From an uncultured Gammaproteobacteria bacterium (GTDB lineage Bacteria > Pseudomonadota > Gammaproteobacteria > Eutrophobiales > Eutrophobiaceae), in NCBI GenBank assembly GCA_938084745.1, contig CALKEZ010000006.1:3007-67006 (forward strand): a stretch of DNA of 64,000 nt, in the 5' to 3' direction. Position numbers and translations under genes: made by a program. Below are positions 1 to 18,160 of the stretch, piece by piece. Below the pieces are notes generated by a model that worked only from the letters and a program-made list of their open reading frames with translations, made no database searches and was not told where the DNA came from. Positions within the stretch are counted from its first letter, which is position 1; each line of letters opens with the position of its first letter.

Positions 1-479
1 CTTTCTTGCTGAATACTCAACTCATTCTCTTGCCAACTCTCGCCACCATCAGGAGTAATATAAAGTAATCCATAGGCACCAATCACGATACCGTTTAATG
101 CATCGCTAAAGAAAACATCAAGTAATGGCGCTTCCTTATCTATATCACTGAATATTTTATGCCAGGTTTTTGCACCGTCTTTTGTTTTTAAAATTACAGC
201 ATCATGTCCAACTGCCCAGCCTGTTTTGTCATCCAACATGAAGACGCCGGTTAAAGTGGTATTCGAATCAACACTTGCTTGCGTCCAGTTTTTGGCATCC
301 CGCGAATACAGAATATGTCCTCGCTCACCAACAACGACACTCAGTGCGCCACATTGCGATGATGCCAGTAACAGTGATTTTTTAACCCATGGCGAAATTG
401 TTGCTTGCTCATCCGCAACGACTAATGTAGTCAGAATAAAAAAGGAAAACAGTGGAACGATTTTGGAAAGTTTAATCAT
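1..479 (-). CDS. Ycf48/BNR-repeat-like beta-propeller protein, N-terminal part; the 3' end runs off the window
   Basis: Absent from the ORF track because it is open at the window edge. Reverse translation from the ATG at 477-479 gives MIKLSKIVPLFSFFILTTLVVADEQATISPW (signal-peptide-like). It continues with repeats such as GWAVGHDAVILKTKDGAKTW and GIVIGAYGLLYITPDGGESW, and I saw no stop codon down to position 3. It sits downstream of the DUF1302/DUF1329 genes on the same strand. Confidence 0.6.
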   Translation of the reverse strand, partial: MIKLSKIVPLFSFFILTTLVVADEQATISPWVKKSLLLASSQCGALSVVVGERGHILYSRDAKNWTQASVDSNTTLTGVFMLDDKTGWAVGHDAVILKTKDGAKTWHKIFSDIDKEAPLLDVFFSDALNGIVIGAYGLLYITPDGGESWQENELSIQQE

Positions 480-567
480 CCAGACACAGACATTTTATAT
501 TTATATTAAAGCCTGAGTAATTATCAGCGTACTTGGACTTTATAAAGAAAGATTTAAGCTTTCATGT

Positions 568-1935
568 CTAACGATGGCCTTCCCTACGCAGGGCAGAAGG
601 CAGAAAATCACTATCATCAAACTTTACCTTAAAGTTGTATGGCGTAGTTTCATTACACAGTCCTATTGCAAGGTATCTTCCAGCCTGTAGATCAGAATGC
701 ACTTCCAATGTCGTCCATACACTTTGAACATCATAATAATTAATGGCAAAACCTTCAGACACACGCCAAAGCTGATCACGATTGTCATATTGATCAACAA
801 TTAAGATTTGCCAGGAATCTTCATCGATATAAAATGTTCGGCGCTTATAGATATGTCTCGCATCAGATTTTAAACTTGCTTCAACGACCCAGACCCGATG
901 TAGCTCATAACGGGGATAAGCCTGATTAATGTGTAGGGGTGTTAAAATATCACTGTACTTTAATGATGGTGCCTGTAGTTTATAATTGTTATAGGGGACA
1001 TAGATTTCTTTCTTACCCACCAGCTTCCAGTCATAACGTTCCGGACTACCATTGTACATATCAAATTGATCATTAGTGCGCATCCCGTCTGACGCTGTCC
1101 CGGGATTATCAAATGCGACATTGGGTGCGCGTCTCACTCGTCGTTGTCCGGGGTTATACAACCAGGCTTTTCGATTCTCGGCCTTTTGATTCATAGTTTC
1201 ATGAACCAGCAGAATACCACCCGCTAATCTGGCCGGGGCTTTCACTTCCTGTTTAAAATATAAAATAGTATTGTTCAATTCATCTGCCGTCATTCCTGAA
1301 TGGCTATATAACAGATTAAACTGATCCGAAAACTGCACCAGCGTGTAGCCCCCACCTCGGGTAGGCGCAGCTTGTGCGACATTACGTTCAGCATAGTCCC
1401 CACGCCAACGTAATAAATGATTCCATAAAACTTCAAGACCCTGACTTGGAATAGGAAAAGGTATCCCAATCGCAGCATTTTCAACACCATTGCCATCACT
1501 CGTCAACTTTGCTGTTGCAGCAATTCTACTGGTTGCAGCATAAATGCGTTCTGGAGCAGACGCACTGCGCCGGGTTGGATAAACGTTGAGTTTATATGTG
1601 TCTGGATAGGTGTTTAATAATGCCTTGTGACCCTCGCTCAGCTTGTCAGCATATTTAGACATATTGCTTTTTGTGATGCTGAACTGAATTGCATCATCCG
1701 CATAGGGGTCAATATAATGCTGTCCCGGTTTATAGCCTGCAGGTGGTGTCATTATTCCCCCATCCCAGGCCGGAATTGTGCCATCGGCATTCGCCGCTTT
1801 TTCGCCTCCGAGTGGGGTCAGGTCATTTCCCAGTCGGGCAATATCATCCGCTGATATTTCTGCATGCAGCGATAATGGGAACGTCATTACAATGCAAATG
1901 AAAGAGATAAAAATTATGTTTATTTTTTTATTCAT
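568..1935 (-). CDS. DUF1329 family periplasmic protein (LolA-like fold family)
   Basis: 455-aa ORF with an N-terminal signal peptide (MNKKINIIFISFICIVMTFPLSLHAE). The ADDIARLGNDLTPLGGEKAANADGTIPAWDGG opening is characteristic of DUF1329. It is adjacent to a DUF1302 gene. Confidence 0.8.
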   Translation of the reverse strand: MNKKINIIFISFICIVMTFPLSLHAEISADDIARLGNDLTPLGGEKAANADGTIPAWDGGIMTPPAGYKPGQHYIDPYADDAIQFSITKSNMSKYADKLSEGHKALLNTYPDTYKLNVYPTRRSASAPERIYAATSRIAATAKLTSDGNGVENAAIGIPFPIPSQGLEVLWNHLLRWRGDYAERNVAQAAPTRGGGYTLVQFSDQFNLLYSHSGMTADELNNTILYFKQEVKAPARLAGGILLVHETMNQKAENRKAWLYNPGQRRVRRAPNVAFDNPGTASDGMRTNDQFDMYNGSPERYDWKLVGKKEIYVPYNNYKLQAPSLKYSDILTPLHINQAYPRYELHRVWVVEASLKSDARHIYKRRTFYIDEDSWQILIVDQYDNRDQLWRVSEGFAINYYDVQSVWTTLEVHSDLQAGRYLAIGLCNETTPYNFKVKFDDSDFLPSALRREGHR

Positions 1936-1970
1936 AATATCGATTGTGTAGGCCCTAAAAAAATAAAAAT

Positions 1971-3785
1971 CTAGAAAGCATAACTTAAGCTAAATGCGAC
2001 GAAGTCCCGATCCTGTAACAGGTTTTGTGAGCCCGCACCATAGAAGCCGGTATAACTTAGATCGGCACGCCAGCTATTTTGATAATCGGCAGTCACGCCC
2101 AGCGTCATTTGTTTGAAACCTTCAATAAAATTTCCCCCGGGACCGGGAGTATTACCGGAAACATCATGTCGCCAACCAATTCTTGGCGATAAATTGACCG
2201 CACCAATGACATTATTATAAGTCAGTCGGCCAACAAAGCGGTATCCCCAGGAAGTAGAGTCAGCATAGTCATTTGTTTCAACAGGAACCGTAAAAAATCC
2301 GGCTGTTATCGGGTTACCGGGAAGGTTTGTTCCGGCAGCCTCTAGACGTAAATCACTTTGACTTGGCATGTCATGTATATGCGTGATGGCGAATTCACTC
2401 AGCATTACTGCCTGATTTGCCTTGAATACATTGCCAAAGACCTTGCTCGCAGTCATTTGAAACTGGCTTACATCACGTTCGATGAACCCCGGGATAGTGG
2501 CACCATTAGCAAACACGCCTAATTGACTCGTTGCGCCGCCGCCGGGTAATAGCTCGAAATGTAGTGCTGCGGCCAGAAGCTCAACATCGTCCACCTGCAG
2601 CGGCACATCATTACGATAGGAATATTCACCTTGCAAAGCGATACCGGAAGTCCCTAATTGTGTATTGAAACTGGCACCAAACAGATGGATATCTTCCGGG
2701 TAACTAATAAAATAGGATGCTGGTAATGCCGGATTATTTACCGGGAAAGTGGCTCCGGGGGTATCTGCTATTGCGTTAATGACCGGCAGGCGGCTATGGT
2801 ACTTGATATGGTAAAAACCGAACTCGGAATCATTGAGTGCTTCTGAATAAATACGTAAAGCAACCCCATATTCTTCACCTTGATCAGGTCTGACATCGTC
2901 GGCACGACCCGCTGAGAATGCAGTACCCGGTGCAGCCCCACAGATAGCAGCCGGGAAGTTAGGTAATGAGGTCAGTGTACCACCCAATGTTAAGTAGTCG
3001 GGACATGCGCCAAAACCCAGTGCGACAAATGTTCCACCAGCCCCGACGAAATCATTAGTACTAAAATATGACCCGGTAGGATCAATCAGCGTACGCTCAT
3101 AGTCATACTGCCAATACGCTTCCAGAGAGACATCATCGAATATTCCAAGCGAGGCAAAGACAATACCAACTGGTGTTAAGGCTTCTTTAAGTTGAGCACC
3201 CGGGACTCTTAACTTACTAACATCAACCGGGTTAATGACATTAATACTGTTTTGAATAAACGTACTCTCGCCCCAGCTAACAACCTGTTCCCCCACGCGC
3301 AAAGAAAAGGGCATTGAACCAATCTTAAAATCACCCCATACATAGGCATCTAATAATGAAAGATTTTCACCGTTTAATCGTATCGTAGTGTCAGACAAGG
3401 GCGTGCGTTGTGTATCACCAGTAATACCATTCGCTTTGCTATCCTGAAAACCGGTACCCCTGACAAAGACACCAAAGTTTTTATAATTGAGTTCGAGTTC
3501 GGTGGTAAATTTAAGTGTGCTGCTTACAAGACCGGTGTCTTTGTAGTTCAAATTACCATCATCACCGTTAGCAGAATATGCAGCACCGCCACTTGCTCTA
3601 CTATGCAAGTCGGACGCCATGGGTTGGACGCGATGCAAAGTACCAAAAGAAATGTTGGTATCCCAACTTCCGGTTAAGTCTCCCTGATTTATTTCAATGG
3701 CCTCAACGTACCCGCCATTTGATAACACGGCGATTAAAAACAGGCTGATAATCCATTTCGATCTTACATGACAATTAGCAGTCAT
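1971..3785 (-). CDS. DUF1302 family outer-membrane beta-barrel protein
   Basis: 604-aa ORF with a signal peptide. Alternating Gly/aromatic-rich strands and a C-terminal ...FSLSYAF with terminal Phe are typical of outer-membrane proteins. Paired with DUF1329. Confidence 0.8.
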   Translation of the reverse strand: MTANCHVRSKWIISLFLIAVLSNGGYVEAIEINQGDLTGSWDTNISFGTLHRVQPMASDLHSRASGGAAYSANGDDGNLNYKDTGLVSSTLKFTTELELNYKNFGVFVRGTGFQDSKANGITGDTQRTPLSDTTIRLNGENLSLLDAYVWGDFKIGSMPFSLRVGEQVVSWGESTFIQNSINVINPVDVSKLRVPGAQLKEALTPVGIVFASLGIFDDVSLEAYWQYDYERTLIDPTGSYFSTNDFVGAGGTFVALGFGACPDYLTLGGTLTSLPNFPAAICGAAPGTAFSAGRADDVRPDQGEEYGVALRIYSEALNDSEFGFYHIKYHSRLPVINAIADTPGATFPVNNPALPASYFISYPEDIHLFGASFNTQLGTSGIALQGEYSYRNDVPLQVDDVELLAAALHFELLPGGGATSQLGVFANGATIPGFIERDVSQFQMTASKVFGNVFKANQAVMLSEFAITHIHDMPSQSDLRLEAAGTNLPGNPITAGFFTVPVETNDYADSTSWGYRFVGRLTYNNVIGAVNLSPRIGWRHDVSGNTPGPGGNFIEGFKQMTLGVTADYQNSWRADLSYTGFYGAGSQNLLQDRDFVAFSLSYAF

Positions 3786-3910
3786 GATCTACCCCTTACT
3801 TTTGGATTATTATTACGATTTTTCCAAAAACCTCACTGTATCTGGAATTTAGTAAATAATTATATTTATAGCACAATTAATATTATTTTTTTCTATCACA
3901 ACGGGATAGC

Positions 3911-5203
3911 CTAGACATCCTGAGACATTTTTTCTGTTGTTGCTGATAAACGATGGATTAATGTTCTCAAAAAAACCTTAAGGAACCTGACCTGACAATT
4001 CAATGAAACCTGGGAAATTACGGTTGAATTAATCTTCATCAAAGAGGTGTGATCAGGTGCTTTAATTGTGGCCGTTCGTTTCGTTTTAGCCAAATAACCC
4101 ATCTCACCAAAACAATCGCCTTTTTCCAGGTTTCGTATCACCGTTCCATTTTTCATAACATCGACACTACCTTTAACGATAATATAAAAACAATCATCCA
4201 TATCGCCTTCAACAATAATGTCATCATTAGCATTATAGTCCTGCCAGCTACTGGCACGGAGGATTTCCCATATTTCCGCATCCGGGAAGCCGGTAAAGAA
4301 ATCAAGTTTTTTAACTGAATTAAACTTTTCTTCAGCGGAAATATCTTTCTTCGGTTTTTCCAGCGTATCAAATGCCTTGGTAAGATCGGCTGCCAGATCA
4401 AGGCCCATCTGATAACGGTTAGCGACATCTTTTTCTAATGCTTTGCAGACAATCTCGTTTAATGAATCCGGCAAATCAGTTCGATAGTCGCTCATAGGCG
4501 GCGGCTCATCATTCAGAATTGTATTGACCAGGCGCGAAAAATTATCTGCCGGAAAAGGTTGTCTGCCAGTCAACAATTCATACATCACCACACCTAATGA
4601 GAAAAGGTCACTCTGATTAGTAACATGTTCTTCTCGCAGTTGTTCTGGTGACATATACCTTGGTGAGCCCATCATGCCGCCCATTTGTGTCGTCGTTGAA
4701 TCGGCATTGTAGATATGGGCAATACTGAAATCACCAATCTTTACATCCTGATCAGGCGTAAACAGTATATTCGAGGGTTTAATATCTCGATGCACCACTC
4801 CTTGTCGGTGAGCGTAATCAAGCGCATTAGCGCATTTGAAAATGATTTCAACGACCTTGTTTACCGGTAATAAATTATCCGAGCTGCAAAAGGGTTTTAA
4901 GGTATTCCCACCCTCGATGTATTCCATAACGATGTAACAGTTATCTTCATCAACACCCGCATCATAGATATTAATGACATTCGGATGAGTCAGGAGGCCC
5001 GCGGTATGCGCCTCATTAAAAAACATCTTCCGATAGCGCGCGCCTGATTCGACATTATTTAACGCATCAAGAAAAGCAACTTTTAATGCTACCGGACGAT
5101 TAATGTAGGGATCATGACCAAGATAGACCACCCCCATACTGCCCCGATCAATTTCTTCACGAACTTCATATTTACCTAGTTTCTCAGGGACATTATTAGT
5201 CAT
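3911..5203 (-). CDS. Hanks-type Ser/Thr protein kinase fused to a C-terminal cyclic-nucleotide-binding domain (paralog 1)
   Basis: Kinase motifs: RGSMGVVY loop, VALKV lysine, HRDIKPSN catalytic loop, DFS (DFG position), SPRYMSPE. C-terminal cNMP-binding signature: FYIIVKGSVDV...GDCFGEMGYLAKTKRTATIKA. Confidence 0.85.
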   Translation of the reverse strand: MTNNVPEKLGKYEVREEIDRGSMGVVYLGHDPYINRPVALKVAFLDALNNVESGARYRKMFFNEAHTAGLLTHPNVINIYDAGVDEDNCYIVMEYIEGGNTLKPFCSSDNLLPVNKVVEIIFKCANALDYAHRQGVVHRDIKPSNILFTPDQDVKIGDFSIAHIYNADSTTTQMGGMMGSPRYMSPEQLREEHVTNQSDLFSLGVVMYELLTGRQPFPADNFSRLVNTILNDEPPPMSDYRTDLPDSLNEIVCKALEKDVANRYQMGLDLAADLTKAFDTLEKPKKDISAEEKFNSVKKLDFFTGFPDAEIWEILRASSWQDYNANDDIIVEGDMDDCFYIIVKGSVDVMKNGTVIRNLEKGDCFGEMGYLAKTKRTATIKAPDHTSLMKINSTVISQVSLNCQVRFLKVFLRTLIHRLSATTEKMSQDV

Positions 5204-5489
5204 GTGATTCTTCTGTTTATCTCTAATTTTATGTAACCAAAGGCTATTATGTGCAGTGCAACAAGTCTGTCACCTAATAACTTATCATAACGATGTAACT
5301 TATTGTCGTATATTAATCCATCTTCATTGATTTTAATATCTATCATAGTGTCATATCACAACGACATTAATGATTGCTATTAAACATAAAAGCGGCAATA
5401 TTGACCATAATGTTCAGCCTACTATACTGGCAGATATGTACTAATATTAATCTGGGGCAAGGATTGCGCACAAATGGAGACTGACAATT

Positions 5490-5927
5490 ATGACCACTAC
5501 TGTTAATCAGCTACTTAATGCTAAAAAAAGTGAAATATTTTCGGTTACGCCAGACTCACTCGTGATTGATGCCATCAGGATGATGAATGACAAAAAAGTC
5601 GGCGCATTACTCGTTATGGAAGACGGAAAACTATCAGGGATTCTGTCGGAACGAGATTACACCAGAAAAGTAATACTTAATAACCGCAGTTCATCTGACA
5701 CCAAGGTCGGGGAAATCATGACTGCCGAGCTAAAGACAGTCAACACATCGCAAACTATCGATGAATGCCTGGTTATTATGTCGCATAATCATATACGGCA
5801 TTTACCCGTTGTTGATAATGATAAAACCGTTGGTATTTTGTCCGTTATGGATGTTGTTAAAAATATTATCTCTGAAAAGGAATTTATAATAGAACAATTG
5901 GAGCATTATATTACAGATACGGCCTAA
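5490..5927 (+). CDS. CBS-pair domain protein
   Basis: 145-aa ORF with two CBS repeats (VGALLVMEDGKLSGILSERD and IRHLPVVDNDKTVGILSVMD). A GGAGA Shine-Dalgarno lies upstream of the ATG. Confidence 0.85.
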   Translation: MTTTVNQLLNAKKSEIFSVTPDSLVIDAIRMMNDKKVGALLVMEDGKLSGILSERDYTRKVILNNRSSSDTKVGEIMTAELKTVNTSQTIDECLVIMSHNHIRHLPVVDNDKTVGILSVMDVVKNIISEKEFIIEQLEHYITDTA

Positions 5928-6003
5928 TCATTCCTTCACAATCCCGTAATCACCATGGATAGTGTTTAAAACTTGAGCCTTTAAAGTAAGAACCTTCGAC
6001 GTT

Positions 6004-6040
6004 AGCTGCCATACATTTAAATATGGCAGCTATTATTTTT
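6004..6040 (+). terminator. Rho-independent terminator downstream of the CBS gene
   Basis: Perfect 10-bp stem agctgccata/tatggcagct (6004-6013 / 6022-6031) with an 8-nt loop, followed by attattttt. Confidence 0.65.
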
Positions 6041-6134
6041 ATAATCAAAATTAATTGGCTTTGGACGGATAATAAACCAGTCTGGAATCGATTTTTTGAC
6101 TCTCGAATAAATAGATATTTACATAACGAACAGT

Positions 6135-7712
6135 ATGTCAAAAACGAAAAAATCAGTCATTCACGAGCAATTAAGTTCGCATCATGCAGCGATGAAAAAT
6201 ATTCGCTTACGAGATCTGTTTATGCATGACCCGCAACGCGGCAAAACGTATACACAGCATTTTGGTGGACTGTATATCGACCTATCCAAGAATATCATTT
6301 CAAATGAAACACTGCCTTTACTGAACAAGTTTGCAAAAGTATCGGGTATTGAAGCATCGATTAAGGCGATGTTTGCCGGTGAAAAAATCAATAACACTGA
6401 AGATCGTGCAGTCCTGCATACCGCGCTGCGCTCCATGCCTGAGCAACAGCTTGAACTCGATAATAAAGAGATCATCAGTCAGGTACATGCTGAACTCGAT
6501 AAGGTACAAAATTTTGTTACCCGCATTCATTCCAAAAACCATCGTGGCTGGACCAATAAACCAATCGATACCTTTGTCAATATTGGAATCGGTGGTTCTG
6601 ATCTCGGTCCCAAAATGATAGTTGCTGCATTGGAAGAGTATCGACAAGGTGAAACGCGATCTTTTTTCATTTCAAATATAGATTATGAAGCGATTGATTC
6701 AGTACAAAAAAAGATAGATCCCGAAACAACACTATTCATTATTGCATCAAAGTCATTCAATACAATTGAAACCCTGACCAATGCCGAAACCCTCAAGACA
6801 TGGATGCTAGCGTCGGGTTGTAATGATATAAGCAAACACTTTGTTGCGGTATCTAACAATCTTGAAGCCACCGGCAGTTTTGGCATAAAACCGGAAAATG
6901 TGTTTACTTTATGGGACTGGGTCGGTGGGCGCTTCTCATTATGGTCAGCAATTGGTTTACCCATTGCACTGGCTATTGGTTATGACAACTTCAAAGCCTT
7001 ACTAGCTGGTGCACATGAGCTGGATGAACATTTTTCACATGCGCCACTGGAAAAAAATATACCGGTCACCCTGGCATTGATCGATTATTGGTACGCTCGT
7101 TTCTTTGACGCACCAACACATGCCTTCATACCTTACGATGAATCTCTTAAATTATTACCGGATTATCTTTCACAACTGTTTATGGAGAGTAATGGCAAAT
7201 CAACAGACATAAACGGACATATTGTTGATTACAAAACCATGCCAATTACATGGGGTTCTGTCGGTACAAATTCACAGCATTCTTTTTTTCAATTATTACA
7301 TCAAGGCACACACCTGGTGCCAATTGATTTTCTTGCGCCATTAAGAAAGAAAGGTGACCAAAAACATCATGCCTTATTGCTGGCTAACTGCCTGGCTCAG
7401 AGTCAGGCTCTGATGCAAGGTGAAAGCAGTACCGATCCAAATCGCCATATAGTTGGCAATAAACCCAGCACCACGATTCTATACACTGAACTTACACCCA
7501 CCATACTGGGTTCTTTAATCGCGATGTATGAGCACCGAACCTTCGTGCAGGGTTTGTTATGGAACATCAATCCATTCGACCAATGGGGGGTCGAATTGGG
7601 GAAAAAACTCGCCGTGGACATCTATGACGTACTCGAGGGAAAGAAGACCGGCGATAACTTGGATTCATCCACGCAGAATCTGATTGACCTCTACCATAAT
7701 TATCATCACTAG
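6135..7712 (+). CDS. pgi: glucose-6-phosphate isomerase
   Basis: 525-aa ORF with full-length resemblance to bacterial PGI. Motifs include IGIGGSDLGP, FIIASKSFNT(I)ET and GVELGK. Confidence 0.95.
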   Translation: MSKTKKSVIHEQLSSHHAAMKNIRLRDLFMHDPQRGKTYTQHFGGLYIDLSKNIISNETLPLLNKFAKVSGIEASIKAMFAGEKINNTEDRAVLHTALRSMPEQQLELDNKEIISQVHAELDKVQNFVTRIHSKNHRGWTNKPIDTFVNIGIGGSDLGPKMIVAALEEYRQGETRSFFISNIDYEAIDSVQKKIDPETTLFIIASKSFNTIETLTNAETLKTWMLASGCNDISKHFVAVSNNLEATGSFGIKPENVFTLWDWVGGRFSLWSAIGLPIALAIGYDNFKALLAGAHELDEHFSHAPLEKNIPVTLALIDYWYARFFDAPTHAFIPYDESLKLLPDYLSQLFMESNGKSTDINGHIVDYKTMPITWGSVGTNSQHSFFQLLHQGTHLVPIDFLAPLRKKGDQKHHALLLANCLAQSQALMQGESSTDPNRHIVGNKPSTTILYTELTPTILGSLIAMYEHRTFVQGLLWNINPFDQWGVELGKKLAVDIYDVLEGKKTGDNLDSSTQNLIDLYHNYHH

Positions 7713-7730
7713 ATTTCGCGGGCTATAAAA

Positions 7731-9020
7731 TCAATCATGACGTGACACATACATTGCTGTTGTTTCAGAGAGTCGTTTAACCAGGGTCTGCATAAAGACA
7801 CGACTAAAGTGTAACTGACATTCTACCGAGGCCTGTTCAATTAGTGTTGCATTAATCTTCATCAAGTCGACATGGTTTCTGGCGAGTATAGTTGCGGTTC
7901 GTTTGGCCTTGCTGAGATAACTCATTTCCCCAAAACAATCGCCGGCTTGTAAATTGCCAATCAAGGCGCCGTCCTTATAAACATCTACCTCGCCAGAGAT
8001 AATGATATAGAACGAATCATCAATATCACCTTCAACAATAATTTGAGTGCCTGTATCAAATTTCTGCCAGATACACGCCCGTATAATCTCCCATATTTCA
8101 GATTCGGGAAACTCGCTGAAAAAATCCAGTGACTGGATAGAATTAAATTTTTCCTGAACTTCAACTTCTTCTTCCGGTTTGTCGAGGTAATCAAATGCCA
8201 GACTTAAGTCTGCAGCAAAATTCAAACCCATTTTGTAGCGTTTCTCCGGATTTTTCTGTAAGGCATGGTGAATAATCTTTTCGAGGATTTCCGGTACATC
8301 AGTCCGGTGAGCACTCAAGGGCGCATTATTTTCGTTGATGATCATATGGATTAAACGCGAAAAACTATCTGCCGGAAAGGGATGCTTACCGGTCAACAAT
8401 TCATACATGACTATACCCAACGAAAAGAGATCAGTTTGATTCGTTATAACATCTTCCTGCACTTGTTCCGGTGACATGTATCGTGGAGAACCAACAAAGC
8501 CCATCGGCATGGTATTGGTTGTGTCAGAGGTCATGATATGAGCAATACTAAAATCGGCAATCTTCACGTCCTGCTCTTGGGTAATTAAAATATTGGTCGG
8601 TTTAATATCCCGGTGAATGACACCATTACGATGGGCATAATCCAGCGCTTTTGCGCATTTAAATGTAATTTCAATGACTTTTTCAAGCGGCAACAGATTC
8701 TTTGCGTTACAGAATGGTTTCAGTGTTTCGCCACCTTCGATGAGTTCCATCACTATATAGCAATGATCATCTTCCGCACCGGCATCCAGAATCTCGACAA
8801 TGTTGGGGTGTCTTAATGTTCCTGCGGCATGAGCTTCGTTAAAGAACATTTTACGATAGCGTTCACCTGATTCTTTATCTTTCAGGGATTCAGATAGAGC
8901 AACTTTCACCGCCACATCGCGTTCGGCAAAAGGGTCGTAACCTTTGTAAACAATACCCATACTGCCACGACCGACCTGCTCTTTTATTTCATACTTGCCT
9001 AATTGTTCAGGAATATTCAT
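7731..9020 (-). CDS. Hanks-type Ser/Thr protein kinase fused to a C-terminal cyclic-nucleotide-binding domain (paralog 2)
   Basis: Collinear with the 3911-5203 protein: GRGSMGIVY, VAVKV, HRDIKPTN, DFS, SPRYMSPE and GDCFGEMSYLSKAKRTATILA. The ORF is open to a GTG at 9038, but the ATG at 9018-9020 (MNIPEQLGKYE) aligns with the start of paralog 1. Confidence 0.85.
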   Translation of the reverse strand: MNIPEQLGKYEIKEQVGRGSMGIVYKGYDPFAERDVAVKVALSESLKDKESGERYRKMFFNEAHAAGTLRHPNIVEILDAGAEDDHCYIVMELIEGGETLKPFCNAKNLLPLEKVIEITFKCAKALDYAHRNGVIHRDIKPTNILITQEQDVKIADFSIAHIMTSDTTNTMPMGFVGSPRYMSPEQVQEDVITNQTDLFSLGIVMYELLTGKHPFPADSFSRLIHMIINENNAPLSAHRTDVPEILEKIIHHALQKNPEKRYKMGLNFAADLSLAFDYLDKPEEEVEVQEKFNSIQSLDFFSEFPESEIWEIIRACIWQKFDTGTQIIVEGDIDDSFYIIISGEVDVYKDGALIGNLQAGDCFGEMSYLSKAKRTATILARNHVDLMKINATLIEQASVECQLHFSRVFMQTLVKRLSETTAMYVSRHD

Positions 9021-9221
9021 TTGAAGATTAAAATACACTACTTATAATGAGTTATTTCATTTTATTAAAACATATTATTGATAAATTACTGAATCTTTCT
9101 CTTAAATTGTTGGCAAAGACGATTCCTTGATACAATTCGAAACTTCTTAATCGTTGTCAATAAACGACAAAACCTGCTCTACTTCTCTGTCAATTTACAC
9201 AAAGGTATAACTAACATCATT

Positions 9222-9971
9222 ATGAAGGCTATTATTCTTGCCGCGGGCATAGGTAACCGACTCGGCAATCATGCTGCAAACCAACCTAAATCGTTACTGG
9301 AATTTGATGGAAAAAGCTTATTAAAACGTCATATTGAGATTCTTTCGGCAAATAATATCGACGAAATTACCATTGTCACCGGCTACGAATCCGCGCTGCT
9401 GATGGATCATCTTCAGGGTCAAAGCATACCTATCAATTACATTTATAATGACCGTTATACCGAAGGCAGTATCATCAGTCTCGGCTGTGCACGGCCGGTA
9501 ATAGTGAGTGAACCTGAATTTATCTTAATGGATGCTGATGTTCTTTATGATCAGGAAATGATTCGGCGTTTGGTCAATACCGCTATAAACAACTGCCTCT
9601 TGCTGGATCGCGACTTTATCCCGGGCGATGAACCAGTCAAGATTTGTGTTGATAAAAATGGACGCATAAATGAATTTAGAAAACACATCGCTGACGATCT
9701 TGATTATACTATGCAGGGAGAATCAGTAGGCTTTTTCAAATTTAATAACCACATTGGCCAGTCCCTGCTTGAACGTATCGATGACTATCTTGCCAAAGGC
9801 GAAAACAAGACGCCCTATGAAGAAGCTATTCGCGATTTGTTATTAGAAGATGCGACACGATTTGGCTATGAAGATGTCACCGGTGTCCCCTGGATCGAAA
9901 TTGATTTCCCTGAAGATATTGAACGTGCACAAAACGAGATAATACCCGCATTAACCCCTATCAATCATTAA
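9222..9971 (+). CDS. LicC/PntC-like nucleotidyltransferase (probable phosphonate or phospho-alcohol cytidylyltransferase)
   Basis: N-terminal MKAIILAAGIGNRLG nucleotide-binding signature, KSLLEFDGKSLL, and C-terminal GVPWIEIDFPEDIERA. It sits immediately upstream of pepM. Confidence 0.75.
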   Translation: MKAIILAAGIGNRLGNHAANQPKSLLEFDGKSLLKRHIEILSANNIDEITIVTGYESALLMDHLQGQSIPINYIYNDRYTEGSIISLGCARPVIVSEPEFILMDADVLYDQEMIRRLVNTAINNCLLLDRDFIPGDEPVKICVDKNGRINEFRKHIADDLDYTMQGESVGFFKFNNHIGQSLLERIDDYLAKGENKTPYEEAIRDLLLEDATRFGYEDVTGVPWIEIDFPEDIERAQNEIIPALTPINH

Positions 9972-9990
9972 TCAGTAGTTAATATAAAAA

Positions 9991-11628
9991 ATGTCTAAAA
10001 ATAGCCATAAAGAAATAAGCAAATGCAAACAGCTGCGTACGCTGCTTGAATCAAACGAACTTGAATTTATCCTCGAAGCCCATAACGGCATCTCGGCAAG
10101 CATTGTAGAAAGCGCCGGTTTTAAGGGTATCTGGGGCAGTGGCCTTGCGATGTCCGCACAGTTTGGCGTACGTGATAGTAATGAGGCCAGTTGGACGCAA
10201 GTGGTCGATATGCTCGAATTCATGTCAGATGCCACCACCATCCCTATCTTGCTAGATGGCGATACCGGCTACGGTAACTTTAATAATATGCGCCGACTGG
10301 TGGTAAAACTTGAGCAACGTGATATCGCTGGCGTCTGCATAGAAGACAAACAGTTCCCTAAAACCAACAGCTTTATTGATGGCAATAAACAACCACTGGC
10401 TGAGATTGGCGAATTCTGTGGCAAGATTAAAGCAGGCAAAGATAGCCAGACCAATGATGATTTTTGTATTGTCGCCAGAGTCGAGGCCTTGATCGCCGGC
10501 TGGGGATTAACTGAGGCATTGAAAAGAGCCGAAGCCTATCATCAGGCTGGAGCGGATGGAATATTAATCCATAGCAAGTTATCCAGACCCGATGAAATCC
10601 TCGCCTTTGCCAAAGAATGGGCTGGACGTTCACCATTGGTTATTGTGCCGACCAAATATTACAGCACACCAACCGACGCCTTTCGTAAAGCAGGTATCGA
10701 TCTTGTTATCTGGGCAAACCACATGATCCGCACCGCTGTGGCCGCCATGGAAAAAACCAGCAAGACTATTTACGAATCAGAGTCTTTAGTTGATGTGGAA
10801 GACAAGATTGCCGGTGTCGACCATATCTTCAAATTACAGGGTGCTGAAGAACTAAGTAAGGCACAGGATAAATACCTCGTCCAAAAGTCGGATATCCACG
10901 CGATCATTCTGGCTGCCAGCCGCGGCAATGAGCTACATGAATTAACGCATGATAAACCCAAGGCCATGATCAGTATTGGTGGCAAAACCCTGCTCGGTCG
11001 CTTAATGGACGGGCTTAAAAAAGCAGGCATCAATAAATCCACCGTCATTGCCGGTTATAAAGCAGAGGCAATAAACCTGCTCGGCATCGAAAAATGCATT
11101 AATGAAGATTATGAAAACGGCGATGAATTAAAAACATTGATCTGCGCACAAGAGAATTTCAACGATGACATGCTGATTCTTTATAGTGATCTTTTATTCC
11201 GGGAATATATTCTCAGGGACTTGATTGAAATAGAAGGCGAAGTGGTCATTATCGTTGACTCTGCGCTGGACAATCCAAATATTACCGGCTCACCAGACTA
11301 TGCTTACTGTAGTAAAGATGATGACCGTTCACCCTTTATGCAAAATGTGACGCTAACCCAATTGTCTTCATCGGCAGATGCCGCTGCGAAACCACCCTCC
11401 GGTTACTGGATTGGCATGATGCGCGTCAGGAAAGAAGGTCGACAATGGATAGAAGCCGCACTCGATGAATTAAAGACTGCAGCAAACTTTAATGAACTGA
11501 CTTTGCCCGATCTGTTGAACCATCTCATCAAACAAGGCAAACCCATTCATGTTCATTATATTGATGGCCATTGGCTTGATGTGAATTCACTGGACGATAT
11601 TGATCGCGCTGGCGATTTCACACAATAA
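9991..11628 (+). CDS. pepM: phosphoenolpyruvate mutase (PepM) fused to a C-terminal nucleotidyltransferase-like domain
   Basis: The N-terminal ~290 aa show isocitrate-lyase/PEP-mutase superfamily motifs ([26 protein letters not shown]). The C-terminal ~250 aa resemble an NTP-transferase ([14 protein letters not shown]...[14 protein letters not shown]...[16 protein letters not shown]). Confidence 0.9.
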
Positions 11629-11664
11629 TGAATCAATGCAATTAAACCTTAAAAGAGAAGTACA

Positions 11665-12819
11665 TTGATAGAAGCAAAAGATTTTGTTGAAGCGGCCCGA
11701 GAACTCGGCTTCAGTCGTTATACAGGTGTGCCCTGTTCATTTTTAACACCGTTTATTAACTATGTCATTAATGATGATGCATTGGAATATGTCTCATCCG
11801 CAAACGAAGGCGATGCGTTGGCCACTGCCGCTGGCGCAGCCATTGGCGGTCAACGTTCCGTTGTGATGATGCAAAACTCAGGTTTGGGTAATGCGGTCAG
11901 TCCCATCACCTCGCTGTCTTATGTATTTCGTATCCCGTGTTTAATCATCAGCACGCATCGCGGGCAACCCGGCGTAAAGGATGAACCACAACATGAACTG
12001 ATGGGACAAATCACCAAAGAACTGTTCGACACGATGCGTGTGCCCTGGGAAATTTTTCCCAGCAAGCTAGAAGATATTGCGCCTGCCTTGCAACGCGCCG
12101 ATGAATACATGAAGAAAGAACAACGACCTTATGCCTTCATCATGGAAAAAGGGATGGTAGCACCACAGGCATTATATAAAAATCCTGTTGCCAATATTTC
12201 AGGACGCAAAGCCCTTGTTCGTTCAGCATATAATCCCGGTGCCATATCGATAAATCGTAATGCAGCATTACGGCGTATTATCGATCACACACCAGAAGAG
12301 AATACCGTCTTAATTGCGACTACCGGATTTACCGGACGTGAGTTATTCGCGATTAATGATCGACCGAATCAAATCTACATGGTCGGTTCGATGGGTTGTG
12401 CCTCATCGCTAGGCCTGGGGATTGCCCTAGCGAGGCCCGATTTAAAAGTCGTTGTGATCGACGGCGACGGTGCTGGCTTGATGCGCATGGGAAATTTCGC
12501 AACCATCGGCAGCTATGCTGGCAATAACCTGATACATATACTATTAAATAATGAAGTACATGATTCCACCGGTGCCCAGGCAACCGTTGGTGGCAATATT
12601 GACTTTTCAAAGGTAGCTGAAGCGAGTGGCTATGGCGTCTGTTTATCGGGTAACGAAATCGAAACGATTGATGAGGTGTTTGCATTGGAACCACAAGCAG
12701 GACCCGTCTTCGCTCATCTAAAAATAGCTGCCGGTACAATTGATGATTTACCCAGGCCGGATATCACCCCAAACGAGGTATTAGTAAGATTTATGCAACA
12801 CATAAACAGCAGTTTTTAA
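11665..12819 (+). CDS. aepY: phosphonopyruvate decarboxylase (TPP-dependent)
   Basis: 384-aa ORF with a TTG start. TPP-binding motif VIDGDGAGLMRMGNFATIG...NNEVHDSTG. Positioned directly after pepM. Confidence 0.9.
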   Translation: MIEAKDFVEAARELGFSRYTGVPCSFLTPFINYVINDDALEYVSSANEGDALATAAGAAIGGQRSVVMMQNSGLGNAVSPITSLSYVFRIPCLIISTHRGQPGVKDEPQHELMGQITKELFDTMRVPWEIFPSKLEDIAPALQRADEYMKKEQRPYAFIMEKGMVAPQALYKNPVANISGRKALVRSAYNPGAISINRNAALRRIIDHTPEENTVLIATTGFTGRELFAINDRPNQIYMVGSMGCASSLGLGIALARPDLKVVVIDGDGAGLMRMGNFATIGSYAGNNLIHILLNNEVHDSTGAQATVGGNIDFSKVAEASGYGVCLSGNEIETIDEVFALEPQAGPVFAHLKIAAGTIDDLPRPDITPNEVLVRFMQHINSSF

Positions 12820-12821
12820 CT

Positions 12822-13910
12822 ATGACAACTCTATTACTCAATCCGGGCCCTGTCGTTTTAAGTAAACGTGTGCGTGAGGCACTGTTAAAACCCGATCTCT
12901 GTCATCGCGAACAAGAGTTTATCGATTTACAAAACAAGATCCGAACTGAGTTGTTGAATATTTATCAACTCCTCGCTACCGACTGGGCAAGTATTGTCTT
13001 TACCGGTTCTGGCACCTCAGCAATGGAAGCGATGCTGACCAGCCTTGTGCCCGCACACGGCAAAGTACTAATCATCGAAAATGGCGTCTATGGTGAACGC
13101 CTGACCAAGATTGCCCAGATACATGATATTGCGCATGTCGTACTACATAATGGATGGGGTGATGAGATCGATCTCGTCAAGCTTGAAGGAGAACTCCAAT
13201 ACCATAAAGAAATTTCACATGTTGCCGTAGTCCATCATGAAACTACCACGGGACGTTTAAATGATATCGATGCCATTGCAGAACTCTGCAAAAAATACGG
13301 CAACATCCCTATGCTACTCGATGCTGTCAGCAGCTTTGGTGCAGAAGAAATAAAATTTGAAGACTGGAATATCGCTGCCTGTGCCGCAACCGCAAACAAA
13401 TGTTTACATGCCGTACCAGGGACATCTTTCGTGATTGCAAATAGAACCGCGATGGCACAAATGTCGGCAACACCTCCCCGCACACTCTATCTTGATCTGG
13501 TTACCTACCTTAAAAATCAGGACGCCAATGGCACACCCTTCACGCAATCGGTACACACATTCTATGCTTTGGCCGAGGCATTAGATGAATTAAACGATGC
13601 GGGTGGTTGGAAAAAAAGACAACAACTCTACTGGCAACGCATGGATATCGTGCGTGATGGTTTACAACAACTAAACATCAACGCCTGCCTTGAACGAGAA
13701 CAATGCTCCTGTGTATTAAACTCATTCCCGTTACCCAAAGGCATCAGTTACGAATTACTACATGACAAACTCAAAACAGCCGGCTTCGTGATCTACGCCG
13801 GTCAAGGCAGCTTTGCACAATCACGCTTTCGCATCTCTTGCATGGGAGAGATAAGTAATAGTGATATGGAACGGTTAGTTAAAGAAATTAAAAATATTGT
13901 TAGTGGTTAG
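12822..13910 (+). CDS. phnW: 2-aminoethylphosphonate--pyruvate transaminase (class V aminotransferase)
   Basis: 362-aa ORF with class V aminotransferase features (LLNPGPV, FTGSGTSAMEA, ANKCLHAVPG lysine region). It starts 2 nt after the ppd stop. Confidence 0.85.
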   Translation: MTTLLLNPGPVVLSKRVREALLKPDLCHREQEFIDLQNKIRTELLNIYQLLATDWASIVFTGSGTSAMEAMLTSLVPAHGKVLIIENGVYGERLTKIAQIHDIAHVVLHNGWGDEIDLVKLEGELQYHKEISHVAVVHHETTTGRLNDIDAIAELCKKYGNIPMLLDAVSSFGAEEIKFEDWNIAACAATANKCLHAVPGTSFVIANRTAMAQMSATPPRTLYLDLVTYLKNQDANGTPFTQSVHTFYALAEALDELNDAGGWKKRQQLYWQRMDIVRDGLQQLNINACLEREQCSCVLNSFPLPKGISYELLHDKLKTAGFVIYAGQGSFAQSRFRISCMGEISNSDMERLVKEIKNIVSG

Positions 13911-16804: not shown

Positions 16805-17029
16805 TACTTATTTGCTTTCAAATAGCGCATTATGAATAGTGATAAAGAGCCATGCAAGGAGTTCGATTCATTAACACAACAAAGATGCCTTAATGACCGA
16901 CCATGAAATTAACTAAACCCGAGGCTGTACATTCATGCAGACATCACTTATCTTGACGGGTTTTAGTGCAACAGCACATAAAATTGCATCAAAACTCGAT
17001 AATTAACCAACAATCTGGAGTCTTTCTTA

Positions 17030-18160
17030 ATGGGTGTACCTCTAATTCAGCAATTCAGGATGGGAAAATATATCCTCGGCAAAAAATTCAGTGGAGAAAA
17101 GAAATATCCATTGGTCTTAATGTTAGAGCCTTTGTTTCGTTGCAATCTGGCCTGTGCCGGCTGTGGCAAAATTGATTATCCGAAAGAGATACTGGATAAA
17201 CGCCTGAGTTATGAAGAATGCATGACTGCTATCGATGAATGTGGTGCCCCGGTCGTGTCTATTGCTGGCGGCGAACCATTGATACACAAGGAAATGAAGC
17301 AGATTGTTGATGGTTATATTGAGCGTAAGAAATTCGTTTATCTTTGCACAAACGCACTCTTGTTGAAGAAACATATTGATGAATACACACCATCACCCTA
17401 TTTAACCTTTTCTATCCATCTTGACGGTAATAAAGAGCGTCATGATGCGTCGGTCTGTCTAGACGGTGTTTTTGATAAATGTATAAATGTTATTAAACTG
17501 GCCCGTGAAAAAGGCTTCCGTGTCACCATCAACTGCACCCTGTTCCAGAACGAAACCGCTGATGAGGTTGCTGAATTCATGGATATGGCGATGGAATTGG
17601 GCGTCGAAGGCGTTACCATATCGCCGGGATACAATTACGAAAGAGCGCCAAAACAGGATGTATTCCTGAAGAAAACCGAAAGCAAACAACTTTTCCGAGA
17701 CATATTCAAATTAGGCATCGGTAAAAAATGGCGTTTCAACCAGTCCTCCTTGTATCTGGATTTCCTGGCCGGTAACCAGACCTATGAATGTACGCCCTGG
17801 GGGAATCCAACCCGTAATGTATTTGGTTGGCAAAAACCCTGTTACCTTTTGGTAGGCGAAGGTTATGCACCAACTTTCTCTGCCTTGATGGCAGATACTG
17901 AATGGGAAAATTATGGCACCGGACGTAATCCTAAATGCGCCAATTGCATGGTTCATTGTGGTTATGAAGCTACCGCTGTTAACGACACGGTAAGCCATCC
18001 ATTCAAGGCCTTGGGTATCTTCCTTAAAGGACCGAAGACGGAGGGCGAAATGGCACCTGAATTACCCATACTCTATGACGATGATGCGGTAACCGCACCG
18101 AAACTGGTTGCTGAAAATAAAGCGACAAAGAGTTGCGGTAGTAGTAAACAAGTCGCCTGA
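17030..18160 (+). CDS. hpnH: hopanoid biosynthesis radical SAM protein HpnH (adenosylhopane synthase)
   Basis: 376-aa ORF with the radical-SAM CNLACAGCGK motif preceded by YPLVLMLEPLFR. Length and C-terminal Cys-rich region (KCANCMVHCGYE) are typical of HpnH. Confidence 0.9.
   Translation: MGVPLIQQFRMGKYILGKKFSGEKKYPLVLMLEPLFRCNLACAGCGKIDYPKEILDKRLSYEECMTAIDECGAPVVSIAGGEPLIHKEMKQIVDGYIERKKFVYLCTNALLLKKHIDEYTPSPYLTFSIHLDGNKERHDASVCLDGVFDKCINVIKLAREKGFRVTINCTLFQNETADEVAEFMDMAMELGVEGVTISPGYNYERAPKQDVFLKKTESKQLFRDIFKLGIGKKWRFNQSSLYLDFLAGNQTYECTPWGNPTRNVFGWQKPCYLLVGEGYAPTFSALMADTEWENYGTGRNPKCANCMVHCGYEATAVNDTVSHPFKALGIFLKGPKTEGEMAPELPILYDDDAVTAPKLVAENKATKSCGSSKQVA

Follow-up and report, generated by a model that had tools for sequence, protein, structure and literature searches.

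Two genes, kinA and kinB, in a 64-kb stretch of DNA (hereafter the window) from an uncultured marine gammaproteobacterium each encode a serine/threonine kinase domain followed by a cyclic-nucleotide-binding (CNB) domain. The locus raises the question of whether such a protein is a kinase gated by cyclic nucleotides and, if so, what each of the two copies would respond to. The literature searched contained no characterised bacterial kinase-CNB fusion, in agreement with the initial annotation of this DNA, according to which such a protein is not known to have been characterised in gammaproteobacteria. Here, we describe a computational analysis of the two genes and their relatives. We consider KinA and KinB most likely to be soluble cyclic-nucleotide-gated Hanks kinases, the gating being deduced from conserved residues.

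The initial annotation had described two collinear, same-strand paralogous reading frames of 430 and about 429 aa that bracket a CBS-pair gene and pgi, with a phosphonate cluster and a DUF1302/DUF1329 module on their flanks and a class I adenylate cyclase gene 38 kb away. All of these features were recovered by Pfam searches (Table 1), and the two proteins align by BLASTP over 420 aa without gaps (62% identity, 81% positives). Each point of that annotation's interpretation that computation can address was borne out, and nothing that it had named as a refutation was observed. Read mechanically, the kinB frame extends over 7731..9038 and encodes 435 aa from a GTG at 9038; the 429-aa form that begins at the ATG at 9020 is an exact match to a database protein (P0121, 429 aa). 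The pgi gene converges on kinB, with 18 bp between the stop codons. The cyaA product is a possible source of cAMP, and no guanylate cyclase gene was found within the 64-kb window. What would tie the kinases to pgi, the CBS gene and cyaA is synteny and co-presence alone.

Table 1. Positions of the kinase genes, their predicted functional elements and other features in the window
Feature	Position	Strand	Basis and remarks
DUF1302 and DUF1329 genes	568..3785	-	Pfam; directly downstream of kinA, same strand
kinA	3911..5203	-	430 aa; ORF, Pkinase + cNMP_binding; predicted soluble Hanks-type Ser/Thr kinase with C-terminal CNB domain
kinA C-terminal long helix, aa 401-429 (CNB hinge/lid C-helix)	3917..4003	-	AF2 secondary structure, conservation
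kinA CNB β-barrel, aa 321-398	4010..4243	-	Pfam; ungapped phmmer alignments to PKG/PKA CNB domains
kinA phosphate-binding cassette (PBC) FGEMGYLAKTKRTA, aa 365-378	4070-4111	-	
kinA β5 I356-R357	4133..4138	-	Aligned with PfPKG L472/R473; clade counts
kinA kinase domain, aa 12-265	4409..5170	-	Pfam; phmmer and Foldseek to PknB; motif table
kinA Thr-rich activation loop, aa 158-188	4640-4732	-	
CBS-pair protein, stand-alone, 145 aa	5490..5927	+	Pfam CBS 1.8e-25, 2 stretches; divergent from kinA
Terminator-like hairpin, 11-bp stem then T run	6003..6032	+	Between CBS gene and pgi; consensus scan only
pgi, glucose-6-phosphate isomerase	6135..7712	+	Pfam PGI 2.2e-180; NCBIfam NF001211, 734 bits vs cut-off 492
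kinB	7731..9020	-	429 aa from ATG at 9020; same architecture as kinA
kinB CNB β-barrel	7836..8066	-	Pfam
kinB PBC FGEMSYLSKAKRTA	7893-7934	-	
kinB β5 I354-G355	7956-7961	-	Gly where kinA has Arg
Phosphonate cluster	9222..13910	+	Divergent from kinB; NTP transferase, PEP mutase-NTP transferase fusion, TPP decarboxylase, class V aminotransferase
cyaA, class I adenylate cyclase	47420..50116	+	Adenylate_cycl 7.7e-123, Adenyl_cycl_N 2.5e-57; 38 kb from kinase locus

Judged by their sequences, KinA and KinB qualify as Hanks-type serine/threonine kinases and are predicted to catalyse phosphotransfer. Both match the Pkinase profile (PF00069, gathering score 31.7; KinA 1.1e-50, 172.9 bits; KinB 1.3e-57, 195.6 bits), and the glycine-rich loop GRGSMGVVY, the β3 lysine K41, the αC glutamate E64, the HRDIKPSN motif (D140 and N145) and D158 are present and invariant in the family, which is further set apart by an αC signature, RKMFFNEAH. 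By both sequence and fold the best match is Mycobacterium tuberculosis PknB: the KinA kinase domain shares about 33% identity with it (phmmer, 1.6e-48), and the bilobal fold of the KinA AF2 model resembles it closely (Foldseek E 4.8e-23, TM(target) about 0.9, rmsd 1.9 Å). The mean pLDDT of this model is 81.7, and its inter-domain geometry is uncertain (pTM 0.66, low-pLDDT linker).

The likeness to PknB/Stk1 covers the catalytic residues, the activation-loop threonine (KinA T172 lies opposite the PknB phospho-acceptor T171) and the residues of the back-to-back dimer. PknB R10/L33/D76, of which L33 and D76 are those mutated in PDB entries 3ori and 3orm, correspond in the phmmer alignment to KinA K11/I34/D81; the family alignments show no variation at K11 and D81, and at least 90% of kinA-clade sequences conserve I34. 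Unlike PknB/Stk1, KinA and KinB possess neither PASTA repeats nor a transmembrane helix (a hydropathy scan found no transmembrane segment, with a maximum KD19 of 1.03), carry a putative intracellular CNB sensor and have DFS in place of DFG. Assignment to the Stk1/PknB PASTA receptor kinases (NF033483) was rejected: the match, over profile positions 7-279 only, reached 295 of the 450 bits required, there is no hydrophobic segment, and the C-terminus is a CNB domain. The DFS motif, an uncommon variant that the initial annotation had not mentioned, occurs in both KinA and KinB; other family members have DFG.

The C-terminal domain is predicted to bind cAMP or cGMP. It matches cNMP_binding (PF00027) in KinA (4e-15, 56.0 bits) and KinB (8.3e-17, 61.4 bits) well above the gathering score of 27.5 and follows the kinase domain in both proteins, so that the kinase-then-cNMP order proposed earlier holds at Pfam gathering thresholds. 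In the KinA model the fold comprises helices at 288-298 and 308-316, strands within 318-392, and helices at 393-396 and 401-429 (AF2/DSSP), in keeping with the CNB layout of an eight-stranded β-barrel between N-terminal helices and B/C helices. Both cassettes satisfy the PBC pattern (Gly-Glu, 8 residues, Arg, then Ser, Thr or Ala, then Ala). Among solved structures the nearest CNB domains by sequence are those of PKG and PKA.

A domain of this fold need not be a cAMP or cGMP sensor; it could serve as a constitutive dimerisation or scaffold module, bind another ligand or sense redox state, with the kinase regulated in some other way, and such behaviour is found in some CRP/FNR-family and KCNH-type CNB homology domains. 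This reading would account for two universally conserved cysteines, C364, which directly precedes FGE, and C403, early in the C-helix; both are specific to the family rather than general CNB features. The very strong conservation of the C-helix, which in KinA has a 3-4 hydrophobic repeat and includes the family-invariant C403, Q404, F407, V410, F411, L415, R418 and L419, also fits an interface, and the Woeseiaceae clade departs from the cassette kept family-wide (FGE, then Arg followed by Thr or Ser and Ala) in that its PBC Arg is followed, unusually, by Gln. However, loss of cNMP binding by a CNB domain is usually accompanied by loss of its ribose-phosphate contacts, and here those contacts, G366, E367, R376 and A378, do not vary among 55 sequences from three clades that are about 50% identical overall, and are kept in nearly all of approximately 28 representatives of 50%-identity clusters. 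The PBC is, moreover, equal in length to those of PKA and PKG and aligns with them without gaps (phmmer). We therefore regard a non-sensor role for the domain as unlikely and favour a cyclic-nucleotide-gated kinase.

The two proteins might alternatively act in anti-phage defence, as PD-T4-6-like kinases or as Pycsar-like effectors switched on by a cyclic nucleotide alarm. PADLOC models of PD-T4-6 kinases score up to 277-279 bits, and a weak match links the CNB domain to PycTIR (8jsj, 1.8e-6), a Pycsar effector; the PADLOC matches, however, are confined to the generic kinase domain (aa 9-291), and the NCBIfam models for MAD6 (156 bits against a cut-off of 460) and PglW (77 against 990) fall far short. 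Around the kinases lie pgi, CBS, phosphonate and DUF1302/DUF1329 genes in conserved synteny, and neither a cyclase, a nuclease, a TIR gene nor a mobile element adjoins them. The two genes hold a stable place in the core genome of deeply diverged species and evolve under strong purifying selection; the single Woeseiaceae copy likewise lies beside housekeeping genes. A defence role is thus very improbable. Membership in the MADS (MAD6), BREX (PglW), PD-T4-6 and Pycsar systems was rejected, the match being to the kinase domain only, with no partner genes and no defence island.

With respect to the origin of the pair, the data indicate one ancient duplication; the initial annotation had already judged the sequences too diverged for a recent one. 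The genes are 64% identical in nucleotide sequence and 38% identical at third codon positions, which are saturated; their longest exact shared run, the one quoted in that annotation, is 17 nt (at 4569 and 8392); and the kinA and kinB clades, each with many species, are reciprocally monophyletic in a neighbor-joining tree drawn without support values. The suggestion that both copies had been retained by selection also stands. Both are held by strong purifying selection (dN 0.039 and 0.067, saturated dS, omega about 0.02; the dN of pgi is higher, at 0.18), and both are present in every locus that spans the two positions.

Only 15 positions are fixed differently between the kinA and kinB clades, and the radical ones include R357G and the lid-helix change L408S. 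The former lies at a position of known consequence in PKG. In Plasmodium PKG (PfPKG), L472, R473 and T493 are guanine-specific sites shared with CNB-B of human PKG I (PMC4412288), and KinA I356/R357/E367/T377 correspond to PfPKG 472/473/483/493 in the phmmer alignment. Among the 120 closest clusters to each query, the β5 position is Arg in 118/119 kinA-clade proteins and Gly in 119/120 kinB-clade and 119/120 Woeseiaceae proteins. The arginine at the guanine-reading β5 position of PKG, as against glycine in the kinB clade and the outgroup, is a feature of the kinA clade newly recognised here. Gly would be the ancestral state kept by kinB, with Arg gained in kinA after the duplication.

Residues aligned with the PKG guanine contacts (β5 Leu/Ile-Arg and the PBC Thr) are present in KinA only, KinB having Gly at the Arg position. 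Because its β5 Arg and PBC Thr would have been gained after the duplication, KinA is predicted to be cGMP-preferring or dual. In cAMP-activated bacterial proteins such as CRP and Bd1971 the PBC Arg is likewise followed by Ser or Thr (PMC6717892), so that the PBC Thr is not diagnostic for cGMP. A split in selectivity, with cGMP for KinA and cAMP for KinB, can accordingly be put forward only as a tentative proposal from the aligned residues. Equally conjectural, and to our minds rather less than an even chance, is a two-channel system in which KinA would be a bacterial cGMP-dependent kinase with an independently evolved PKG-type Arg and KinB its cAMP-dependent sister.

The paralogs could instead be redundant, or could work only as a heterodimer whose two subunits prefer the same ligand, in which case the R357/G difference would be neutral or structural. 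Their 62% identity, shared architecture and adjacent location, and the small number of fixed differences, are what one would expect of such partners. Nevertheless, simple redundancy is rarely stable for as long as these copies have been kept under strong constraint across a deep clade, and the only radical derived substitution in the pocket, fixed in 118/119 proteins, falls exactly on the base-reading position. We consider redundancy or a common ligand preference improbable.

In the gating mechanism that we propose, a 3',5'-cyclic nucleotide would bind at the canonical PBC and reposition the long C-terminal hinge/lid helix. Movement of this helix would alter the hold of the CNB domain on the kinase N-lobe and αC helix, a hold in which a dimer built on the lid helix would probably take part. 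The altered hold would allow two kinase domains to dimerise back to back, as in PknB, and to autophosphorylate the Thr-rich activation loop in trans, and the activated kinase would then phosphorylate its substrates. KinB may answer to cAMP, for which the genome has a class I cyclase, and KinA to cGMP or to both nucleotides. The analysis establishes the domain architecture, the intact motifs, the paralogy, the purifying selection, the synteny and the pocket difference fixed between the clades; that the proteins bind a ligand, dimerise, discriminate between nucleotides and act on substrates, and in which direction the gate works, is inferred.

The surroundings of the genes bear on what these substrates might be. 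The kinB-pgi-CBS-kinA block recurs with its order and orientation kept in at least 10 species-level MAGs, in which pgi identity falls to 44-50%, and a deep-branching single-copy homolog (L038, 39% identity) also adjoins pgi and a CBS gene. The conserved neighbourhood expected from the initial annotation was therefore found for this core, which persists clade-wide while the outer flanks vary; the phosphonate and DUF1302/DUF1329 flanks are restricted to a subclade, and in sister contigs the latter runs on into BNR and MMPL genes. These patterns would be consistent with a dedicated regulator of Pgi, the CBS-pair protein or both, through which cyclic nucleotides steer flux at the glucose-6-phosphate node. 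The kinases are not, however, co-transcribed with these genes, since pgi runs towards kinB and the CBS gene away from kinA, and the terminator-like hairpin parts the CBS gene from pgi. At one related locus (L006) an unrelated ORF has replaced pgi while both kinases and the CBS gene are still there, and in some related loci no CBS gene was detectable. The single-copy Woeseiaceae orthologs lie in a completely different housekeeping context, beside an nrdR-rib-nusB-thiL-like gene string assigned by gene lengths, and a gene order shared by related genomes says little about function. Regulation of Pgi or the CBS-pair protein is on balance unlikely; as it names a substrate, it would add to a cyclic-nucleotide-gated kinase rather than replace it.

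Among known systems, PKG (human PKG I, Plasmodium PKG) and PKA offer a close parallel, in that a CNB domain controls a serine/threonine kinase, within one polypeptide in PKG, and KinA has residues aligned with those that recognise guanine in PKG. In contrast to PKG, KinA and KinB have the kinase first and the CNB domain second, a single CNB domain rather than two or four, no N-terminal dimerisation or autoinhibitory segment, and a PknB-like instead of an AGC-type kinase. KinA does not preserve the capping triad of PfPKG (R484/Q532/D533), because M368 aligns with R484. Classification as PKG proper was rejected, tandem N-terminal CNB domains and an AGC kinase both being absent. The kinase-CNB fusion probably arose independently of PKG and PKA.

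The cAMP-regulated mycobacterial protein acetyltransferase Pat (Rv0998) and the Bdellovibrio EAL phosphodiesterase Bd1971, whose cAMP-sensing mechanism has been described (PMC6717892), likewise couple a single CNB domain to an enzyme and thereby let a cyclic nucleotide gate catalysis directly, without CRP, and both were recovered as weak matches (NF058543 for Pat; the Bd1971 CNB domain, 6hq3, 6.4e-7). In these proteins, however, an N-terminal CNB domain governs acetylation or the hydrolysis of c-di-GMP, whereas in KinA and KinB it is C-terminal and the predicted output is Ser/Thr phosphorylation. The CRP/FNR family shares the CNB fold, the PBC Glu and Arg-Ser/Thr, and a long C-helix, which in CRP forms the dimer interface (PMC6717892), but KinA and KinB lack its DNA-binding domain (NF008732 match 4e-12, 46 against the CRP cut-off of 266).

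By analogy, the pair may be a bacterial counterpart of PKA/PKG signalling. If so, KinA, KinB and the orthologs that Woeseiaceae and further abundant marine Gammaproteobacteria carry in single copy would together constitute a prokaryotic route leading directly from cyclic nucleotide to Ser/Thr phosphorylation that parallels the eukaryotic one on a PknB-type kinase with the reverse domain order. The family is not rare, being widespread in uncultured Gammaproteobacteria including Woeseiaceae, and members are already deposited under the annotation 'serine/threonine protein kinase'.

The two kinase genes of the window, kinA and kinB, each encode a Pkinase domain (Pfam E values of 1.1e-50 and 1.3e-57, respectively) followed by a cNMP_binding domain (4e-15 and 56 bits in kinA, 8.3e-17 and 61 bits in kinB, against a gathering score of 27.5), which confirms the kinase-then-cNMP order that the initial annotation had read from the sequence. 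The start of kinB was taken from an identical 429-aa database protein (P0121), and the two same-strand reading frames then have the lengths first proposed. The proteins align without gaps over 420 residues at 62% identity and 81% positives (BLASTP), in keeping with an estimate by eye that well over half of the residues are shared. Their DNA is 64% identical overall and 38% identical at third codon positions, and the longest exact common run, the one quoted in that annotation, is 17 nt; the copies are thus too diverged for a recent duplication, as had been argued. Domain matches likewise recovered a stand-alone CBS-pair gene (CBS) and pgi between the kinases, the phosphonate and DUF1302/DUF1329 genes outside them, and a class I adenylate cyclase gene (cyaA) elsewhere in the window.

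Positions of the kinase genes and of other features in the window
Feature	Position	Strand	Remarks
DUF1302 + DUF1329	568-3785	minus	downstream of kinA, same strand
kinA	3911..5203	minus	ORF, 430 aa
CBS, stand-alone pair	5490..5927	plus	Pfam
pgi	6135..7712	plus	Pfam/NCBIfam
kinB	7731..9020	minus	429 aa from ATG at 9020; ORF 7731..9038, 435 aa from GTG
Phosphonate-type cluster	9222-13910	divergent from kinB	NTP transferase, PEP mutase-NTP transferase fusion, TPP decarboxylase, aminotransferase
dxs	14903-16804	minus	
Radical-SAM+DUF3463 gene	17030-18160		
Family-2 glycosyltransferase	18160-19272		
MlaC	19375-20010		
MlaA	20108-20902		
CCG/Fe-S subunit	20955-22172		glycolate-oxidase-like
FAD_binding_4	22178-23236		glycolate-oxidase-like
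FAD-oxidase	24363-25883		glycolate-oxidase-like
cyaA, class I adenylate cyclase	47420..50116		domain match

By sequence and by predicted fold, both proteins carry a bacterial Hanks kinase domain of the PknB type. Among solved structures, PknB ranks first at the sequence level (phmmer, 1.6e-48) and is also the best fold match of an AlphaFold2 model with a mean pLDDT of 81.7 and a pTM of 0.66 (Foldseek, TM(target) ~0.9, rmsd 1.9 Å). The Foldseek search of the PDB returned matches to the kinase domain alone (TM(query) of at most 0.58) and no solved full-length kinase-then-cNMP arrangement. The Gly-rich loop, K41, E64, the HRD aspartate D140, N145 and D158 (kinA numbering throughout) are invariant in the family, and the DFG motif reads DFS in kinA and kinB and DFG in other members. 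In alignment, the activation-loop phospho-acceptor T171 of PknB corresponds to T172, and the residues of its back-to-back dimer, R10, L33 and D76, correspond to K11, I34 and D81. The family alignments show no variation at K11 or D81, and at least 90% conservation of I34 within the kinA clade; L33 and D76 are sites mutated in several PknB PDB entries. The αC region, RKMFFNEAH, is invariant over clades that are ~50% identical overall. Neither protein contains a hydrophobic segment, and both are therefore expected to be soluble. Although they are Hanks kinases like the PASTA receptor kinases, they are not members of that group, scoring 295 bits against an equivalog cut-off of 450. Strong PADLOC scores for PD-T4-6 would suggest anti-phage kinases, but these matches span the generic kinase domain only, for which reason membership of the PD-T4-6 family was dismissed; the core-genome context also argues against an anti-phage role, which we find scarcely credible.

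The C-terminal 156 residues find their best matches in the cyclic-nucleotide-binding (CNB) domains of Plasmodium PKG (PfPKG), PKA regulatory subunits and human PKG I, with bacterial CNB proteins ranking behind, and the alignment to these domains is gap-free through β4, the phosphate-binding cassette (PBC) and beyond. The AlphaFold2 model has the expected N-terminal helices of a CNB domain, a barrel of eight strands and a C-helix of 29 residues; this helix has a 3-4 hydrophobic repeat and is almost invariant. The residues predicted to bind the ribose phosphate, G366, E367, R376 and A378, do not vary among 55 sequences that span three clades, and they are kept in nearly all of ~28 full-length proteins representing clusters at 50% identity. 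Two cysteines are equally constant throughout the three clades, kinA, kinB and Woeseiaceae: C364 (window 4112-4114), which immediately precedes FGE in the PBC, is conserved in 359 of 359 sequences, and C403 (window 3995-3997), at the start of the C-helix, is conserved universally. These cysteines and their kinB equivalents are not general CNB features, and may serve in redox chemistry, metal binding or packing. Their invariance, together with a Gln variant after the PBC Arg in Woeseiaceae, would favour a domain that binds a ligand other than a cyclic nucleotide or is purely structural; the invariant ribose-phosphate contacts speak against such a module, and we regard it as unlikely.

In the best-supported reading, kinA and kinB are soluble Hanks kinases gated by cyclic nucleotides, and the sequence evidence makes such gating probable. 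Binding of ligand at the PBC would move the C-helix, acting as a hinge or lid, and this helix would form an interface, either in a CRP-like dimer or in contact with the kinase; that it forms an interface is made probable by its hydrophobic repeat and near invariance. Conservation of the PknB dimer residues and invariance of αC suggest that the output would be control of N-lobe pairing and of trans-autophosphorylation of the Thr-rich activation loop. The C-helix is the route of both the cis and the trans archetypes of CNB signalling (PMC6717892). The genome encodes a class I cyclase for cAMP, and no guanylate cyclase was seen within the 64-kb window. A scan of the window for CRP sites (TGTGA-N6-TCACA, at most two mismatches) gave 22 matches against 34.6 expected, with none near the kinases, and thus shows no sign of cAMP-CRP control.

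The paralogs differ in the β5 strand of the ligand pocket. In an ungapped phmmer alignment to PfPKG (5dyk_A, residues 407-498), kinA residues I356, R357, E367, R376 and T377 correspond to L472, R473, E483, R492 and T493. In the CNB-D domain of PfPKG the sugar-phosphate is held by E483 and A485, the phosphate and guanine N2 are bridged by T493, and L472 and R473 of strand 5 'specifically recognize the guanine moiety', three sites that resemble those of human PKG I CNB-B (PMC4412288). Among the 120 best clusters per query, the position of R357 is Arg in 118 of 119 kinA-clade proteins and Gly in 119 of 120 proteins in both the kinB clade and the Woeseiaceae; R357 is therefore a derived residue that became fixed in kinA. 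It is one of 15 fixed differences between the two clades, the radical ones including R357G, L408S in the lid helix and Q173M in the activation loop. After the PBC Arg, kinA has Thr and kinB has either Thr or Ser; Woeseiaceae have an unusual Gln there, their PBC reading R-Q-A-S. An 'RTAT' cassette was rejected as a marker of cGMP binding, since it is not diagnostic alone: CRP and Bd1971 use Ser there and are cAMP-responsive (PMC6717892). We propose only tentatively, from these residues, that kinA may prefer cGMP and kinB cAMP. That the paralogs are instead redundant, or obligately heterodimeric, with one ligand preference appears quite improbable. For ligand selectivity the pair is a natural experiment, with one derived Arg at a position whose role in PKG is known.

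Orthologs of kinA and kinB form two reciprocally monophyletic clades with Woeseiaceae outside, in a neighbour-joining tree that carries no support values, and this topology indicates one duplication at the base of the clade. In comparison with the closest relative available, whose proteins share 92% (kinA) and 88% (kinB) of their amino acids, dN is 0.039 for kinA and 0.067 for kinB, against 0.18 for pgi; omega is ~0.02 where computable, an upper bound only, as dS is saturated or undefined even at this distance. The low dN values place both copies under strong purifying selection, tighter than that on the housekeeping pgi gene between them, and bear out the earlier suggestion that both have been retained by selection.

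Both proteins are already present in public collections, where their sole annotation is 'serine/threonine protein kinase'. Each query recovers more than 100 clusters of full-length relatives that share this architecture (72-93% identity) from marine and other metagenomes, and a Woeseiaceae homolog recovers more than 120 tightly conserved clusters. In a scan of one genome per species, full-length relatives occur in many uncultured Gammaproteobacteria MAGs; others, also full-length, come from MAGs of Woeseiaceae and 'Chromatiales', where identity is ~50%, and from a few lineages further away. The CNB region alone, searched against 1.84 billion representatives, matches 2493 proteins at E <= 1e-10, the best 150 of which include ~30 proteins of roughly 430-450 aa matched at the C-terminus. 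These counts mark the family as large.

Of the neighbourhood described initially, the core has wide support: kinB-pgi-CBS-kinA recurs, with gene order and orientation unchanged, in 10 or more species-level MAGs (tblastn and gene calls), with kinA identities of 62-86% and pgi identities of only 44-61%. The phosphonate and DUF1302/DUF1329 flanks, however, are confined to one subclade. The persistence of this synteny, even at a locus (L038) where a deep-branching single-copy homolog also adjoins pgi and CBS, might be taken to mean that the kinases are dedicated regulators of these two genes. We consider this improbable, as neither gene is co-transcribed with the kinases, the Woeseiaceae context is unrelated, and pgi has been lost from another MAG locus (L006 5700-7160), where an unrelated 360-aa ORF stands in its place and the order of kinB, CBS and kinA is intact.

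The single Woeseiaceae copy follows a conserved same-strand string that corresponds, by gene lengths, to nrdR-ribD-ribE-ribBA-ribH-nusB-thiL-pgpA (L017-L033, from Woeseiaceae and Chromatiales MAGs), and such a neighbourhood was set aside as uninformative about function. The window has its own Pfam-verified nrdR-to-thiL string (40130-45391), with no kinase after it. By N-terminal sequence reading, the L038 homolog follows a run of apparent chemotaxis and response-regulator genes (207-7932), and a distant homolog of 41% identity in a Desulfonema MAG (L035 4579-7065) is followed by an apparent PP2C phosphatase. Some copies are damaged: kinB ends after ~aa 204 and gives way to unrelated sequence in a Ca. 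Eutrophobius brisbanensis MAG (L039 8001-8617), is split in two genes, as is PEP mutase, in L086 (6162-7470), and kinA is spread over two frames in L014 (11220-12412). Either pseudogenes or errors of long-read assembly could explain such copies.

Signalling by cAMP and cGMP in bacteria is generally seen as working mainly by way of CRP-type transcription factors, and to our knowledge few fusions of cyclic-nucleotide domains to enzymes are known in bacteria. Examples are mycobacterial Pat and Bdellovibrio Bd1971, the nearest bacterial logic to kinA and kinB. The function proposed here is like that of PKG, but kinA and kinB lie outside the PKG family: their domains come in the opposite order, with only one CNB domain and no N-terminal regulatory segment, and the kinase is PknB-like rather than AGC-type. 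No characterised bacterial kinase-CNB protein was found in openly accessible full texts, in line with the initial remark that the architecture is not known to have been characterised in gammaproteobacteria; domain surveys mention only in passing that kinases and PP2C phosphatases of bacteria can carry cNMP domains (PMC11032199, PMC12088040, PMC2887360). The finding is real and well conserved, yet it combines two familiar modules in an architecture already visible in databases. If the gating is true, this sensor-Hanks kinase family, which is widespread, strongly conserved and present in uncultured marine lineages of very high abundance, Woeseiaceae among them, would provide a direct post-translational output for cyclic nucleotides, a functional parallel of PKA and PKG.

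Other features of the window were noted. A four-gene DUF1302-DUF1329-BNR-MMPL envelope module begins 126 bp 3' of kinA on the same strand, and a consensus scan found no terminator-like site between them; in sister contigs DUF1302-DUF1329 runs on into a BNR/PSII_BNR protein and then an MMPL/RND transporter (L081 7610-13664; L085 11474-18488). In the phosphonate cluster, PEP mutase is fused to a MobA-like nucleotidyltransferase (9991-11628) and a second nucleotidyltransferase stands alone (9222-9971), which suggests that a nucleotide-activated phosphonate may decorate glycans or lipids. The region 14903-20902 resembles a cluster for hopanoid side chains and lipid trafficking, here in a marine gammaproteobacterium; we take the radical SAM+DUF3463 combination to be the signature of HpnH. 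No tRNA or Rfam family reached the gathering threshold in the 64 kb, including upstream of the riboflavin genes (41547-44882). A diguanylate cyclase gene of the response-regulator-GGDEF type (23410-24366), which lies on the opposite strand, interrupts the glycolate-oxidase-like genes (20955-25883), and a DUF815 AAA-ATPase gene (50189-51064) lies directly downstream of cyaA on the same strand.
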